DNA of 10,832 bases from a virus. Made by a program: the position numbers and the translations under genes. This document shows positions 1,315 to 6,716 of the stretch, in pieces (position 1 is the first letter of the stretch; the number at the start of each line of letters is the position of its first letter). The stretch lies in IMG/VR virus record IMGVR_UViG_3300035208_008211. The stretch is one strand, 5' to 3'. The notes beneath the pieces were generated by a model. That model had not been told where the DNA came from, made no database searches, and was given only the letters and a program-made list of their open reading frames with translations.

Positions 1315-1698
1315 TCAACGTGTCATATTAGACTTCAGACATGCCACCTCCTGATATTTCTCTATATCCGCCCCAGGAATATACTTGGCAAACATATATG
1401 CACACCAAGAATCTTTACATGCTGCCTCCTGACATTTCTCTATATCTGCTCCAGGAATATCAAAGGCAAAACAATATGCATAATAAGGATCTTTACATAC
1501 CGCTTCTTGGCATTTCCCTATATTTGCCCCAGGAACATCCAAGGCAAACAAATATGCCCATTTAGGTTTTTTACATGCTTCTTCTTCATCATTTAATATT
1601 AGTAAATTATTTTTAAGTTTATAACTTATGGTATGTGGAACGTTTTTAGCATCTGATAATATATTATTTAATATATTAACAAACATATTGTTTGACAT
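1315..1698 (-). CDS. Hypothetical protein (127 aa) with three tandem 26-aa repeats: (W/Y)xY(L/C/M)FAxD(V/I)PGA(N/D)I(G/E)K(C/Y)QEAxCKD.
   Basis: Track ORF in the dominant minus orientation, with a non-repeat N-terminus MSNNMFVNILNNILSDAKNVPHTISYKLKNNLLILNDEEEACKKPKW. The repeats are encoded by the 78-bp DNA tandem repeat listed below. The opposite strand (1341..1565) is also open across the repeats, so the orientation call is uncertain. Confidence 0.5.
   Translation of the reverse strand: MSNNMFVNILNNILSDAKNVPHTISYKLKNNLLILNDEEEACKKPKWAYLFALDVPGANIGKCQEAVCKDPYYAYCFAFDIPGADIEKCQEAACKDSWCAYMFAKYIPGADIEKYQEVACLKSNMTR
1339..1590. repeat. Imperfect tandem repeat, period 78 bp, about 3.2 copies. 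Copies start at 1339, 1417, 1495 and 1573; the last is partial.
   Basis: Each copy begins ACATGC(C/T)(A/G)CCTCCTGA(T/C)ATTTCTCTATATC...CCAGGAA(T/C)AT... and ends ...GATCTTT. By eye the copies are about 75-80% identical. One copy equals one 26-aa protein repeat. Confidence 0.8.
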
Positions 1699-2050
1699 TG
1701 TTATTGGTTGAGAAAGATCTAGCGTGCCATAATAATTTTTGTTTTGTTTTAGCGTTTCTGTTTCTTATTTCTTTTTCTTCTATTTCGGAAGCTGTTCTAT
1801 TTCTAACTTGGTATCCAGTAGCTGATGCAAAAAAATAAGATCCATCACCAAAAGCTAAAACATGAGTAGTTAATATACCTTTCCATTTATATTCTATTTG
1901 TGCTTTTGTTAATATCTCTGATATTGGCATTGGTTTATCAAATAATTTGTGTAACATTAATACTCGTTGTTCCCATATAGGATCATTACTACCCTCTATT
2001 TTACATTTTGGTATTTTTCTTTCCTTATTTTTTAAAACTTTTCTAATCAT
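1676..2050 (-). CDS. Hypothetical protein (124 aa), basic N-terminus. It overlaps the next gene by 23 nt in a different frame.
   Basis: Track ORF with an ATG start at 2050. The product is MIRKVLKNKERKIPKCKIEG...WKGILTTHVLAFGDGSYFFASATGYQ... I recognised no family. Confidence 0.45.
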   Translation of the reverse strand: MIRKVLKNKERKIPKCKIEGSNDPIWEQRVLMLHKLFDKPMPISEILTKAQIEYKWKGILTTHVLAFGDGSYFFASATGYQVRNRTASEIEEKEIRNRNAKTKQKLLWHARSFSTNNNVKQYVC

Positions 2051-2104
2051 GTTGTTACCAGTAAGGTTTAGTTTTTTTCAAATGACAACAATAAGACGTA
2101 TCAT

Positions 2105-2124
2105 GGTATAATTTTAATTATACC
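2105..2124. promoter_or_regulatory. Inverted repeat GGTATAATT-tt-AATTATACC (9-bp arms, 2-nt spacer), 55-75 bp upstream of the 1676..2050 gene.
   Basis: Read directly. It contains TATAAT in both orientations. It is a candidate promoter or operator, but such sites are common by chance in AT-rich DNA. Confidence 0.22.
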
Positions 2125-2289
2125 AATGTCTAATCACTCCACACACGATAATTGTATTGGTTATTAGGTTAACTAATACAATTAATGTTCTTATAGCTGC
2201 TACTTTGTCAGCTTCTTGTGTACTAGATCCGCTTTTTTCGCCTAGTGCTTTAGCCCAAAGACGCCACATATATATCCATTATACATTTA

Positions 2290-2323
2290 AAACAACAAAG
2301 ACGGGTAGTTATACAGCTACCCG
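2290..2323 (-). terminator. Rho-independent terminator immediately downstream of the MVP-like gene.
   Basis: On the minus strand a GC-rich 7-bp stem (CGGGTAG/CTACCCG, 2302-2308 pairing with 2317-2323) with an 8-nt loop is followed by TCTTTGTTGTTTT. It begins about 17 nt after the TAA stop at 2340-2342. Confidence 0.5.
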
Positions 2324-2339
2324 CCTTTGTGTATGTGAA

Positions 2340-4187
2340 TTACTTATCTTTTGCCGATTCGGTTATTAACTGTTCTACCCGATCAGCAAATGGGGTTCCA
2401 TTTAACAAACCAGATATGATTGACTTGACGTCAGAACCACCAACAACTTTAAGAATTTGTGTTGGACCAAGAGCTTCAGCAAATTTAGACACAAGCTCTG
2501 CATCGCCAAACCCTCTCAAAGCCGAGATTAAATGATCACTAATAGCAGATGCTTTGATTGTTAAAGCGTCGGCTTCGGCTTTTTGGGCATTTGCAACAAT
2601 CTCAGATGACTGTTTATCAATTGATAATTGCACATCAGCATCTGCTATACGCCTATGTCGTTTAATGGTTTCGGTTAAATCTTTAATTTCTTCAAGAGCA
2701 AGAATGGTTTTTTCCTGTAAAGAAGCTTCTTGATGCGCTGCTTTTGCCTTTAACTCAGCAAGCTCTGTAAATAAAGCAACACTTTGTTTTTCAAACTCTT
2801 TTTGCTCCCTAAAGGTTTGGTTTTCTTCAGCAAAAAGCTTGCGTTTAATTTTTTCTGATTCTGAAATAAAGCTAAACTCTCTATGCTTAGACTCTAAATA
2901 AAGATTTTGTTTTACTACACGTCTTTGAGTTCCAATTAATAAATCTGAAATTTCCTTGTCAAGTGAGATATATAACACCTCTACGTCAGCAACAACCATA
3001 TTGTTGTCAAAAACATGTCCAGATCTAGATCCGTTTTCTAACTTCTTACCAAGGGTTAAATCCCTGATAATTTCCGATGCGTTTTCATAAAATTCTCTAA
3101 TTGTAAACTTTTTAACTGCGCCTCTTAATACAGATCTCATATGATCGCATAAAAACTTAACATAATTTTCTATAGAGAACCAACTGGTAAAATCTTCTCC
3201 AGTAAAGGAAACTCTATATGCAAGCTTAATTTCAATCTTGCAATAATCCTTTGTTTCAACACTTACAATATCTGTAACTGGATTGTTATTAATCTTAAGA
3301 TAAATTGTATTTAAAAGACTCTCTGTGTTTTTTGGCTTTCCTGTAGATAGAGATACTACATGAGGAATCTCATGGTATTCTAACATAGCCGTTTTAGGAC
3401 CAACAATTACTCTTCTAATACCAGATTCACCTTTAGAGGTTAACATAACGGCATAACCATCCCAAACATCTATGGTTACACATCCGTCATATTTGGCATT
3501 TAATGTTAATGTGCGCGGGGGCGTGTATTTATTGCTTCTATTTAATTCAGTTCCAAAAGTGGAATTTCCAGTTGCTTGCTTAACACGCCTATTAAAACTT
3601 CGTAAAGGCAAACAGGCGTCCTCATCAATTGCACACGCCGCAGATGCAACTGATGCAGAATACACAGCAGCTTCAAATGGCTCTGTAGTATTTGCCTGTA
3701 AAGATATATTATGAGATAATGCCTCGTTGTTTCCAGGATACATTACTTCACATAGTGAAGGATCCAAAACCCTACGGACAATTACCTCTGTTCTAGGATC
3801 TGGTAAAAATAATAATGGTCCTTTAATTATAGAAATAATTCCGGTGTTTCTATTGGCAACATATCTAGCTTCACCTTCCGGTATCATTACTCCATAATGA
3901 ACATCTTGATCTTCATACTTAATTATAGAATTTTCTTTTCTAGGAAAGTAAATTGGGGTATCCTTGCCGGTAATAAATAATTCATCACCAGCTTTATAAG
4001 CCCCATATTCATCTTGATAATTTTCTATTACTTTAACATACAAACCTGAGTTTGGAGTTAATTCATAAGCTTTAAACTTACGAACTAAAACTCCATCTTT
4101 GTTGTTTTTTTTCATAAAACTCTTCAGTTGGCTGTGGAAATACAACAGCAGGCCCTTGAACATATCGTTTATCTCCACTTTGGTCAA
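2340..4187 (-). CDS. Segment 3 of the disrupted MVP-like gene (615 aa): remaining vault repeats, shoulder domain, cap-helix and cap-ring.
   Basis: Longest track ORF in the window. Its MVP shoulder and cap motifs are strong (see the pseudogene entry). The annotated M at 4187 is internal to the real protein. Confidence 0.7.
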   Translation of the reverse strand: MTKVEINDMFKGLLLYFHSQLKSFMKKNNKDGVLVRKFKAYELTPNSGLYVKVIENYQDEYGAYKAGDELFITGKDTPIYFPRKENSIIKYEDQDVHYGVMIPEGEARYVANRNTGIISIIKGPLLFLPDPRTEVIVRRVLDPSLCEVMYPGNNEALSHNISLQANTTEPFEAAVYSASVASAACAIDEDACLPLRSFNRRVKQATGNSTFGTELNRSNKYTPPRTLTLNAKYDGCVTIDVWDGYAVMLTSKGESGIRRVIVGPKTAMLEYHEIPHVVSLSTGKPKNTESLLNTIYLKINNNPVTDIVSVETKDYCKIEIKLAYRVSFTGEDFTSWFSIENYVKFLCDHMRSVLRGAVKKFTIREFYENASEIIRDLTLGKKLENGSRSGHVFDNNMVVADVEVLYISLDKEISDLLIGTQRRVVKQNLYLESKHREFSFISESEKIKRKLFAEENQTFREQKEFEKQSVALFTELAELKAKAAHQEASLQEKTILALEEIKDLTETIKRHRRIADADVQLSIDKQSSEIVANAQKAEADALTIKASAISDHLISALRGFGDAELVSKFAEALGPTQILKVVGGSDVKSIISGLLNGTPFADRVEQLITESAKDK

Positions 4188-4518
4188 TTAACAAACAATA
4201 CTCAAGCCTTTCTAAAGTAACAGCGTCACGGACATATATCCGATTTGGTCCATCAAAACCCGCTGTTACTACCTCAAAACCAGTTGTTGGCATATAGAAG
4301 CTAACCTGATCGCCTCTAATAACTAACAACTTGCCAGTTCTAAGATCTGTTGGCTTGTCAATATTAAGCTTATCAGTTGTTTCTGTGTTTACTTCTTCAC
4401 CTTTTCTGGTTTTTAGCAGCTGCTTATCCCAGTTAGCATTTGCTGTATCTTCATTATAAACTCTAATAATCAAATATTGATTGTGACGAAGATGATGTCC
4501 TTGAATTATACGAACCAT
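4078..4518 (-). CDS. Segment 2 of the disrupted MVP-like gene (vault repeats, 146 aa as an ORF).
   Basis: IIQGHHLRHNQYLIIRVY is close to the MVP repeat EIIQATIIRQNQALRLRA, and GKLLVIRGDQVSFYMPTTGFEVV is close to [21 protein letters not shown]. The frame is lost after ...EFYEKKQQ inside GAA AAA AAA CAA. Removing one A restores ...EFYEKNNKDGVLVRKFKA..., which continues into the 615-aa ORF. Confidence 0.5.
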   Translation of the reverse strand: MVRIIQGHHLRHNQYLIIRVYNEDTANANWDKQLLKTRKGEEVNTETTDKLNIDKPTDLRTGKLLVIRGDQVSFYMPTTGFEVVTAGFDGPNRIYVRDAVTLERLEYCLLIDQSGDKRYVQGPAVVFPQPTEEFYEKKQQRWSFSS

Positions 4519-4878
4519 TTATCCAGGCCAAGAGCTAAAACTCACAGGGCCAGGAACAATAATCTTTCTACTAATCTCTAAATCCGGCATTACTGATGCT
4601 GTGCCATCAGTAGGATGTTTCTTGTTTGGATCTTTTGCGGGATTTTTGAGAGATATATACCAGCCTTCTGGTGCTACATGCTTTACCATCTTAGCATTAG
4701 ACCAGTTTACAGATTCAAATTTTTTGAGTTCGCTATTAAATCTAACTAGCTGATCTGTTTTTGATAAACTATGGTTAAACGGACCAGAGAACGTTCTTAT
4801 AGATCCACTTTGAGAACCCATGCAAAACGCATACTCATTTGGAGCCAGAGCAAGATCTTTAGATTCTGTTTCAGACAT
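4519..4878 (-). CDS. Segment 1 of the disrupted MVP-like gene (N-terminal vault repeats). It ends at an in-frame TAA directly abutting the next ATG (TGG CCT GGA TAA ATG GTT).
   Basis: Track ORF 4519..4923 starts at TTG. The first ATG is at 4878 (MSETESKDLALAPNEYAFCMG...), which aligns with the MVP N-terminus MATEEFIIRIPPYHYIHV. Confidence 0.5.
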   Translation of the reverse strand: MSETESKDLALAPNEYAFCMGSQSGSIRTFSGPFNHSLSKTDQLVRFNSELKKFESVNWSNAKMVKHVAPEGWYISLKNPAKDPNKKHPTDGTASVMPDLEISRKIIVPGPVSFSSWPG

Positions 4879-5064
4879 TTTTGTTCTTCTATCTACGCAG
4901 TTTACTTTCGAAATGGTTTGCAAACTTTACTTTTTAAATCTTGAAACCTAAGACGGATCGTTTGTTTTGGTAGTGTTTTTATATTAACAACATACTCACA
5001 TGAACATAAATATGCATATTCTTTTTCTGATATTGTGTTTTTTATTTTATAAACTTTTATACGA

Positions 5065-5086
5065 TTATTCATAATATTATGAATAA
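5065..5086. promoter_or_regulatory. 22-bp perfect palindrome TTATTCATAATATTATGAATAA in the 525-bp AT-rich spacer between the RNA-repair module and the MVP-like gene.
   Basis: Checked against its reverse complement. It lies about 190-210 bp upstream of the MVP ATG at 4878 and is a candidate operator. An (AT)6 tract sits nearby at about 5104-5116. Confidence 0.3.
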
Positions 5087-5448
5087 ACATGTGTGAATTT
5101 GACAATATATATATATAACTACAAAGCCACCTATAGCAAAAACTATTGGAACAATACCAATTAACATACATTTTAATATATTTTCCACCCCAAGCAATAT
5201 CCAACCTGTAATACCAGAACACATAACACTAATATGAGCATACCTTAAAACTGGATAATTAAAAAATAGATTGTTATTTCTTGTGAAAAATTTATATTCT
5301 CCTGCTGGTCCCCATAAAGTACTAAAAGTATTAAATTTAAAATCAAACCAGAATATCTTACATATGAACTTCATAATGGTTAATAAAATTAACCGTATTA
5401 ATGTGAACAAAAAAGAAAACAAAAATATTATTGGCTGTACTGAATATG

Positions 5449-6108
5449 CTAATAGTCTTCTTTTTCTAAAATCACATTCATTATTTGGTTTTGTATTCCA
5501 AAAGAAATTGACCCAATTTTTCCCCAGCTAGGCGGTTCTTTTGCAAAAATACCATCAGGAACCTCAACGTCTAAATATGTTGATGTGATCACTGATTTGT
5601 CATTAATAAATATGTATCTTTTTTTAGTATGAAATAAATCTTCATTCCAATTATCTTCAGATACAAAATTCCCAGATACGTCTTCATACATTATTTTAAA
5701 ATAATCAAAAGAAAAACGAGTTGACTTCTTATAATCATAAATACATTGAAAAATTCTTGCAAAAATTCTATGTTTTCCAGGTTGGTTAAACTGTATGTAT
5801 GTAGCTAAATCTGATAATGGTACAACTATTGTTTCGTGATATTTTATAATTTCATTATATTTTATGGGTGATGTAAATATAGCAATGACAGGCTTGTAAT
5901 AATCTATATTTTTATTAGTTATTAATGTGTTTTTCTTGGGGTTAAAATAATCTAATAATTCTTTATTTACACACCAGGATATTAATATAGAACCAGACGT
6001 TATATCGTCATCATTAATCTTTAATGATACTCCTTGAATCTCTTCTTCTTCTTCTTCTTCTTCTTCTTCTAAGAAATCTGTATTAATATCTTTAGAAATA
6101 TCTGTCAT
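5449..6108 (-). CDS. Hypothetical protein (219 aa) with an N-terminal poly-Glu tract (E10). It is the last gene of the RtcB/Nudix module.
   Basis: Track ORF with an ATG at 6108 and AAAGG 8 nt upstream. It starts 11 bp after the Nudix stop. The product is MTDISKDINTDFLEEEEEEEEEEIQGVSLKINDDD... I recognised no family. Confidence 0.6.
   Translation of the reverse strand: MTDISKDINTDFLEEEEEEEEEEIQGVSLKINDDDITSGSILISWCVNKELLDYFNPKKNTLITNKNIDYYKPVIAIFTSPIKYNEIIKYHETIVVPLSDLATYIQFNQPGKHRIFARIFQCIYDYKKSTRFSFDYFKIMYEDVSGNFVSEDNWNEDLFHTKKRYIFINDKSVITSTYLDVEVPDGIFAKEPPSWGKIGSISFGIQNQIMNVILEKEDY
6040..6069. repeat. Trinucleotide microsatellite CTC(TTC)9 on the plus strand, which is GAG(GAA)9 in the mRNA. 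It encodes the E10 tract.
   Basis: Counted base by base: TTC units at 6043-6069, preceded by CTC at 6040-6042. Confidence 0.9.
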
Positions 6109-6119
6109 TTCAAATACCT

Positions 6120-6536
6120 TTACACAGGAAGAACATCTTTATGTTGTTTCAAAAAATTTTGTATAGGTTCAAATAGTGGATCAGGCAAGTCTTCTTCGTG
6201 AAACCATTTCCACTCTGCACATTTATTTGGTTCCATTAATGTAGGGGTAAGGCACTCTCCAACATCATATCCAAAATATAATGTAATATATCTTTTTTCT
6301 GGCGAAAACTCACTTAACACAAACCCAAGTTTATTTAAAGGACCTTCAATTTCAATACCAGTCTCTTCTTTAAGCTCTCTAATAACAGATTCTTCTGGGT
6401 TTTCAATACCATCAACATGTCCACCAGGAAAGCTCCATGTTCCTGCCCCATGAGAACTTTTTCTTAAACCCATCAATACATATTGATTATGCCTTAGAAC
6501 AATACAAGTTCCAACTTTGAATGGTGTAGTAGTCAT
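6120..6536 (-). CDS. Nudix hydrolase (138 aa).
   Basis: Complete Nudix box GGHVDGIENPEESVIRELKEETGIEI, matching Gx5Ex7REUxEExGU. The size is typical of single-domain Nudix enzymes. ATG start at 6536. I cannot assign a substrate. Confidence 0.85.
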   Translation of the reverse strand: MTTTPFKVGTCIVLRHNQYVLMGLRKSSHGAGTWSFPGGHVDGIENPEESVIRELKEETGIEIEGPLNKLGFVLSEFSPEKRYITLYFGYDVGECLTPTLMEPNKCAEWKWFHEEDLPDPLFEPIQNFLKQHKDVLPV

Positions 6537-6551
6537 TATGTTACCAAGGAT

Positions 6552-6704
6552 TTATTTGTTTTTTAAATCTTCTTTTAAGATAGTTATTAGGTAGTGAACA
6601 GCTCCATACTCAACATTTTCTTGTCTAAATTTATCCTCAATTATTTTTAACGTATGATCAAATAGTAAGTCAAAATATTTTTCTTCAACTATTATTGCTT
6701 TCAT
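6552..6704 (-). CDS. Small ORF (50 aa: MKAIIVEEKYFDLLFDHTLKIIEDKFRQENVEYGAVHYLITILKEDLKNK) between rtcB and the Nudix gene.
   Basis: Translated by hand. It is absent from the track because of its size. AGGA lies 9 nt upstream of the ATG. It starts 12 bp after the rtcB stop and ends 15 bp before the Nudix start, so it fits a co-translated operon member. It could still be spurious. Confidence 0.3.
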   Translation of the reverse strand: MKAIIVEEKYFDLLFDHTLKIIEDKFRQENVEYGAVHYLITILKEDLKNK

Positions 6705-6716
6705 GTTTAATTCCTA

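Follow-up and report, generated by a model that had tools for sequence, protein, structure and literature searches.

The 10,832-bp contig of the IMG/VR virus record IMGVR_UViG_3300035208_008211 (hereafter the window, that is, the whole stretch of DNA analysed) carries an interrupted gene that, if repaired, would encode a major vault protein (MVP) of the prokaryote/phage type. All positions of this gene are given on the window, and the gene lies on the minus strand, which holds every credible gene of the contig (Table 1). The GC content of the window is 34%, and besides the genes with family matches it carries several ORFans. At NCBI the proteins of the window are filed under 'MAG: Clostridia bacterium' with locus tags WC942_051xx. 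An earlier note, made from the letters alone, had described an MVP reading frame broken by one nonsense codon and one homopolymer frameshift. It had offered three explanations, namely a recent pseudogene in a reductive genome, a homopolymer sequencing error plus one substitution, and rescue by transcriptional slippage plus stop read-through.

Table 1. Features of the MVP locus and of the remainder of the window; aa, amino acids; ORF, open reading frame.
Feature	Position	Strand	Description or basis
MVP-like gene (prokaryote/phage type)	2340-4878	minus	845 codons if repaired, here in three frames; Pfam, homologue alignment and intact allele P0125
Fragment 1 (ORF1), MSETES...SSWPG	4519-4878	minus	119 aa from ATG 4878, 134 aa from TTG 4923
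Premature TAA	4519-4521	minus	In place of Gln120 of WPGQM, followed by a conserved Met codon (TAAATG)
Fragment 2 (ORF2)	4078-4518	minus	146 aa from ATG 4518
A8 homopolymer	4105-4112	minus	Exceeds the in-frame A7 of the sister by one A; shifts the downstream part to the +1 frame
Fragment 3 (ORF3, P0001)	2340-4115	minus	591 aa from ATG 4115, which overlaps the start of the A run (NCBI call)
Intrinsic-terminator-like hairpin	2330-2295	minus	14-bp stem and T tail, 10 nt past the MVP stop
Gene upstream of MVP	4902-6108	minus	No family match
Upstream gene, frameshift 1	5517-5525	minus	G4A5 in the window, G3A7 in L006; net -1 nt
Upstream gene, frameshift 2	5106-5117	minus	(TA)6 in the window, (TA)5 in L001, L007 and L006
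NUDIX hydrolase	6120-6536	minus	
50-aa ORF		minus	
rtcB	6717-7961	minus	Pfam match
Family-51 transglycosylase	8553-10205	minus	

Both breaks were found where the earlier note had placed them. Around the first, the coding strand reads TGG CCT GGA TAA ATG GTT, and the column occupied by the stop codon is Q in 99% of 119 homologues. Homology continues on both sides of the TAA and the sister allele described below is uninterrupted there, which agrees with the claim that it is a nonsense change and not a gene boundary. Around the second break the coding strand reads GAG TTT TAT GAA AAA AAA CAA CAA (T8 on the plus strand), and the last nine residues of fragment 2, KQQRWSFSS, are the out-of-frame tail past the A run. 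The frame switch sits in EEFYE|K..NNKDG, a stretch of variable length among homologues. As had been proposed, the frameshift amounts to a single extra A: dropping one A gives ...EEFYEKNNKDG..., identical to the intact sister protein P0125. Fragment 3 runs from the late repeats through the shoulder and the cap helix to the C-terminus. The long ORF of 615 aa that had been called intact does exist, when ORF3 is read from TTG 4187, but just 588 of its 615 codons are MVP-homologous, and the initial ~27 are an out-of-frame overlap with ORF2. One continuous ORF for the whole protein is absent from the window and present in P0125, and either lesion by itself blocks synthesis of the 845-aa protein. Loss of function, in the sense that no full-length protein is made, is inferred.

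The protein obtained by joining the three fragments matches Pfam MVP_shoulder PF11978 (E = 1.4e-26, 93 bits against a cut-off of 25) and Vault_3 PF17795 (E = 3e-09, 37 bits against a cut-off of 28.8), and more than 100 full-length homologues (812-951 aa) can be aligned with it across 97-100% of its length. MVP chains in PDB also match the repaired protein (E ~6e-19). These results place the repaired gene in the prokaryote/phage branch of the MVP family. An AlphaFold2 model was made of the homologue P0002; its mean confidence (predicted local distance difference test, pLDDT) of 70.5 is moderate, and it is poor near the frameshift region, so that domain boundaries taken from it are tentative. 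The model puts residue 120 in the loop joining strands 112-114 and 121-126 and a long helix at 636-770; the change of frame would fall in a low-confidence, indel-prone stretch. The nonsense codon had been placed inside a conserved vault repeat; in the model the site would be a short loop between strands and not the middle of a strand.

It is also evident that the window uses the standard genetic code, since TAA, TAG and TGA all close other genes in it. TAA is the stop codon of rtcB, of the NUDIX gene and of the MVP gene, and further ORFs close with TAG or TGA. The rtcB product reaches position 426/426 of its Pfam model (rtcB homologues are 397-435 aa), and the earlier argument that TAA is a normal stop of rtcB, which excludes an alternative code, therefore holds. 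An in-frame TAA at a sense position occurs only once, in a single gene. An alternative code, with TAA read as Gln, was accordingly ruled out, as all three stops terminate genes of the window. The good terminator that had been noticed downstream of the gene is likewise present.

An exact-sequence cluster look-up placed the 591-aa fragment in the same 90% cluster as the 845-aa protein P0125. P0125 is encoded on L006, a Logan contig from run SRR27370451, which served as the reference "sister". L006 is 96.5% identical at the DNA level to window positions 1603-6069, and L009, from the same run, is 97.2% identical to positions 6041-10784. The comparison with an orthologue that had been recommended thus became possible: the L006 MVP gene is a single intact ORF of 845 aa, with a sense codon for Gln at the first site (GGA CAG ATG) and an A7 run that keeps the frame at the second (GAA AAA AAT AAC AAA). 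CAG at the Gln120 codon is also found in L002, L003 and L011, all of which are in frame and without an A run at the frameshift site. Disabling lesions are therefore present in the window relative to an intact close orthologue, and because L006 has CAG and A7, both are derived and specific to the lineage of the window. TAA and CAG differ at two nucleotides, and the two-step paths CAG->CAA->TAA and CAG->TAG->TAA may both fit. A second change within one codon at 2.5% divergence has roughly a 5% chance, to which we give no weight.

The same TAA and A8 recur in L001 (ENA ERZ27247350), L007 (ERZ27247363) and L008 (JGI 3300029288). L001 differs from the window by C for A at 1907 and by (TA)5 for (TA)6 (5116-5117). 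L007 and L008 share a C-to-T change at 4217 that leads to T221I (variant P0124), and L007 has a further change at 5374. L007 and L008 probably come from one sample, given the common single-nucleotide polymorphism (SNP) and the contigs L013/L014 that link the two accessions. At least three distinguishable populations or assemblies thus carry identical lesions, and both lesions are real as well as derived. A scan of the JGI metagenome added nothing but L011, an MVP with 69% identity, and one distant match, with no further close alleles and no intermediates bearing one lesion, and a scan of IMG/VR with the N-terminal 395 aa recovered no relative. L011 (Ga0265297_10050206) is a second, intact homologue resembling P0002, in the same JGI sample, 3300029288, as L008. 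The contig of P0002 (L002) has a GC content of 46% versus 34% for the window, and L011 evidently belongs to a different genome than the window.

The MVP copy of the window differs from that of the sister by 27 synonymous and 20 non-synonymous changes. When the 20 replacements were polarised with the 119 homologues, three changes on the side of the window, D21G and G103S in fragment 1 and H316N in fragment 3, were found at columns invariant in all 119, and D142N and N236D at columns that are 93% and 82% conserved, respectively. Across the family, private substitutions fall on invariant columns in 38 of ~11,120 cases (0.34%), and the probability of three or more among at most 20 replacements is 4e-5; three of ~10 fits neutrality, 9.8% of the columns being invariant (P = 0.07). 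Branch length was approximated by half the distance to the nearest neighbour, which is crude, but the conclusion is independent of this proxy because the effect spans two orders of magnitude. As a control, rtcB in the same two lineages shows 7 differences, all at variable columns, and none on its 64 invariant columns. The T221I change in the sub-variant of the broken lineage (P0124, L007/L008) is at a 90%-conserved column. Constraint is thus relaxed specifically on the MVP copy of the window.

Disruption extends to the gene directly upstream, which has an acidic N-terminus and a hydrophobic C-terminal half and matches no family. L006 has it as a single ORF, at least 379 aa long, but in the window it is divided among three frames. 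The first of its two frameshifts (Table 1) is also found in the independent contig L010, and the (TA)6 of the second is seen in the window alone. Its ratio of non-synonymous to synonymous substitution rates (dN/dS) is 0.3-0.6, above that of its neighbours; the value for its third piece, scored in the wrong frame, is to be disregarded. The upstream gene is also a pseudogene in the window, and the annotated 219-aa WC942_05170 is a mere N-terminal fragment of it. The earlier note held that further disruptions would show ordinary pseudogenisation; such disruptions are found in this neighbour, and none further in the MVP gene itself. Repeat lengths vary in the same region: the TA tract differs between near-identical assemblies ((TA)6 in the window versus (TA)5 in L001 and L007), and a GAA (poly-Glu) tract at 6065-6070 is two units shorter in L010. 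The region around the repeat tracts at 4105-6070 is prone to slippage. A 40-nt indel relative to L006 (4897-4936) lies directly upstream of the MVP start codon; owing to it the upstream product has another C-terminus (LRFQDLKSKVCKPFRK versus LRFQDCR, each before the stop) and the spacer ahead of the MVP gene is longer.

We consider it very probable that the locus holds a recently inactivated MVP pseudogene of the prokaryote/phage type and no recoding device. The Gln120 codon would have turned to TAA in the lineage of the window, and the A7 run encoding Glu-Lys-Asn would have gained one A through ordinary homopolymer slippage in replication. Afterwards the copy would have begun to collect changes at universally conserved residues, and with the gene directly upstream frameshifted too, decay appears to affect a small patch of two genes. 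In each of these respects the locus resembles young bacterial and phage pseudogenes, which carry nonsense and slippage lesions relative to an intact orthologue, here at a Gln codon and at simple repeats (the A run and the TA run), together with a broken neighbour and the first radical substitutions; we see no essential difference. Of the first explanation that had been offered, the recent pseudogene is upheld by the intact allele, the changes at invariant residues, the broken neighbour and the low dN/dS. The framing as a reductive or AT-rich endosymbiont genome is not, given the abundance of ORFans, the 'Clostridia bacterium' bin and relatives on phage-like contigs of 190-735 kb.

Several observations weigh against a dead gene. 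The dN/dS of the MVP copy against the sister is 0.06, 0.27 and 0.26 for the three pieces and ~0.2 overall, in the range of the intact neighbours (rtcB 0.19, transglycosylase 0.19, NUDIX 0.17). Because the ratio equals that of intact genes, most of the divergence must have arisen under selection, the inactivation is recent and the neutral period was short; the claim that the decay is not ancient is borne out by the same value. The sister P0125 itself carries R618K at an invariant column as well as D298N, and the former may mean that the clade is somewhat lax in general. The 588-codon C-terminal part contains no more stops or frameshifts. Four of the five changes at conserved sites lie in the N-terminal 257 residues (P = 0.08), or five of six when T221I is counted (P = 0.04), and this weak skew would be in keeping with continued constraint on a C-terminal product. 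Finally, each of the two breaks maps to a predicted loop or a variable region and directly precedes an ATG (TAAATG and tATGaaaaaaaac), so that separate translation of the pieces is mechanically possible.

In an alternative reading, to which we assign a low probability, the MVP gene is only partly dead. ORF3 of 591 aa would then be made as an N-terminally truncated MVP, or the three pieces would be produced by termination and reinitiation and associate non-covalently, as in a split gene. The conserved Met codon right after the TAA and the new-frame ATG exactly at the frameshift would suit such an arrangement, as would the predicted position of both breaks in a loop or in a low-confidence region of variable length. 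ORF3 is also without further lesions, has a dN/dS of 0.26 and lies outside the cut-off N-terminal part to which the conserved-site changes are skewed. It keeps the shoulder and the long cap helix, and the cap-helix domain is known to drive self-assembly of MVP (literature summarised in 10.1101/2023.11.10.566534). However, both ATGs are already present in the intact sister (in WPGQM and in TAT-GAA), and the internal start codons are inherited coincidences and not adaptations, because the intact sister has both. The idea that the ATG beside the A run arose as compensation, through a change of TTT to TAT, was likewise ruled out, as the sister also reads TAT-GAA. Moreover, one of the changes at columns without variation among the 119 homologues, H316N, lies in ORF3 itself. 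The broken allele was found in a single near-clonal population only (identity of at least 99.8%), and there is no sign that selection maintains a split state. Neither internal ATG is preceded by a clear Shine-Dalgarno motif, though such motifs are weak throughout the contig. In the 30 nt before start codons they are weak or absent, the best being AGGA before rtcB and before the 50-aa ORF; this limits what can be concluded about internal starts and hints at a host with Shine-Dalgarno-independent initiation. If the alternative were true, ORF3 would be an N-terminally shortened shell protein, perhaps accompanied by two N-terminal pieces made by reinitiation at TAAATG, and the locus would be a natural experiment in the fission of a vault protein within a phage-like element.

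Full-length MVP could in principle still be made if polymerase slippage on the A8 run (giving A7 or A10 transcripts) or a ribosomal +1 shift were combined with read-through or suppression of the TAA, a rescue that we regard as very unlikely. A slippery homopolymer is indeed present at the frame change, and judging from the letters tRNA-Lys on A AAA AAA can re-pair in the +1 frame; the motif alone is no evidence of function. Large phages can carry suppressor tRNAs. Poly-A frameshifts in AT-rich endosymbionts are rescued by transcriptional slippage, and dnaX and prfB are programmed frameshift genes. The present case resembles these in having a homopolymeric A run exactly at the frame change, but the run is just 8 nt, the site is not conserved, the upstream nonsense codon still blocks the product, and there is no sign of an endosymbiont genome. 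Programmed frameshift and read-through sites are conserved among orthologues. Programmed recoding is unsupported because the intact sister shows that neither site is conserved: the 96.5%-identical sister ORF is uninterrupted, and distant orthologues lack the A run. Two inefficient events in series would be required. TAA is a genuine terminator for rtcB, the NUDIX gene and MVP, and no tRNA gene, suppressor or otherwise, was found in the window. The changes at invariant residues further speak against continued selection on the product, and the rescue by slippage and read-through that had been suggested is not supported on these grounds. A bypass of the kind known from T4 gene 60 at GGA-TAA was also considered and dropped, because homology resumes at the next codon and there is nothing to bypass.

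It is scarcely credible that the MVP gene is really intact and that both breaks are errors of sequencing or assembly, as the second of the original explanations held. Homopolymer indels are a classic error type. However, an error is effectively refuted because assemblies with SNPs and indels of their own, at least three of them distinguishable by variants elsewhere, have the same TAA and A8. One of the lesions is moreover a substitution two codon positions away from the CAG of the sister, and the k141_... contig names indicate short-read MEGAHIT assemblies, in which indel errors in an A8 run would be rare. A reversible phase-variation (contingency) switch of MVP at the A7/A8 tract has just as little chance of being correct: repeat-length differences are frequent here ((TA)5/(TA)6, (GAA)n at 6065-6070 and A7/A8), but the TA tract that varies among near-identical assemblies is in the neighbouring gene, among these assemblies A7 and A8 distinguish two lineages with 3.5% divergence and not variants of one population, and slippage cannot reverse the TAA, so that reversal of the tract would not restore the protein.

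Bacterial and phage homologues of MVP have already been described in preprints (Sokolskyi 2019, 10.1101/872010; Santos et al. 2023, 10.1101/2023.11.10.566534). Like these, the repaired protein has N-terminal beta repeats, MVP_shoulder, a long C-terminal helix and a matching length (845 aa); unlike them, the copy in the window is interrupted twice and under relaxed constraint, and its setting is AT-rich (34% GC) and rich in ORFans. Thousands of metagenomic homologues share 40-66% identity with the repaired protein. The sole matches in the phage collection are MVP homologues in the published huge phages LR756500 (462 kb; positions 20907-23363) and LR756501 and LR756503 (735 kb; positions 17611-19605), with 41-44% identity. 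The nearest homologues are P0002 (65%), on a 4.9-kb contig, and P0003 (58%). The contigs that carry P0003 range from 16 to 331 kb (190 kb in the JGI assembly) and are densely filled with short ORFs that lie on the same strand and match no Pfam family. No synteny was found with the contigs of the nearest homologues (L002, L004 and L005; contig GC 46% and 54%), and phage genomes gave no match when queried with the entire window by megablast. Among the genes of the window only rtcB, NUDIX and the transglycosylase match PHROGs, and neither these matches nor the searches of phage proteins tell a phage origin from a cellular one. Possibly the window is part of a large (huge) phage or of another extrachromosomal element that was mis-binned into a Clostridia metagenome-assembled genome. 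The phage-versus-cell question has no effect on the pseudogene verdict. A 71%-identical rtcB is found in L013/L014 (JGI 3300029288 / ERZ27247363), on a 34-kb ORFan-rich contig that is interrupted by two opposite-strand TnpB (OrfB_IS605 / Cas12f-like) genes.

In the window, rtcB, which encodes an RNA-repair ligase, and the NUDIX gene lie on the same strand as the MVP gene and 1.2-1.8 kb upstream of it. Eukaryotic vaults are ribonucleoproteins, and by analogy it is conceivable that rtcB and NUDIX beside MVP form an RNA-related module. The gap between the transglycosylase gene and rtcB (7962-8552) comprises 590 nt without a convincing ORF and has the highest GC content of the window (~41%); within it, positions 8046-8085 differ from L009 by indels of 21, 5 and 4 nt. 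The gap has no Rfam match up to E = 1 and a folding z-score of just -1.8, and the window as a whole matches no Rfam family.

The NCBI 'hypothetical proteins' WC942_05150, WC942_05155 and WC942_05160 are pieces of one MVP gene, which bears on the annotation of the contig. The occurrence of MVP homologues on ORFan-rich, phage-like contigs near rtcB and NUDIX is mildly interesting, already reported in preprints and independent of the lesions. What was found is a known family and an ordinary pseudogene, and the affected gene family is the one unusual point. The locus carries little weight as a mechanism; it is a clean, well-controlled case of what is very probably a very young pseudogene for which the intact allele is known.

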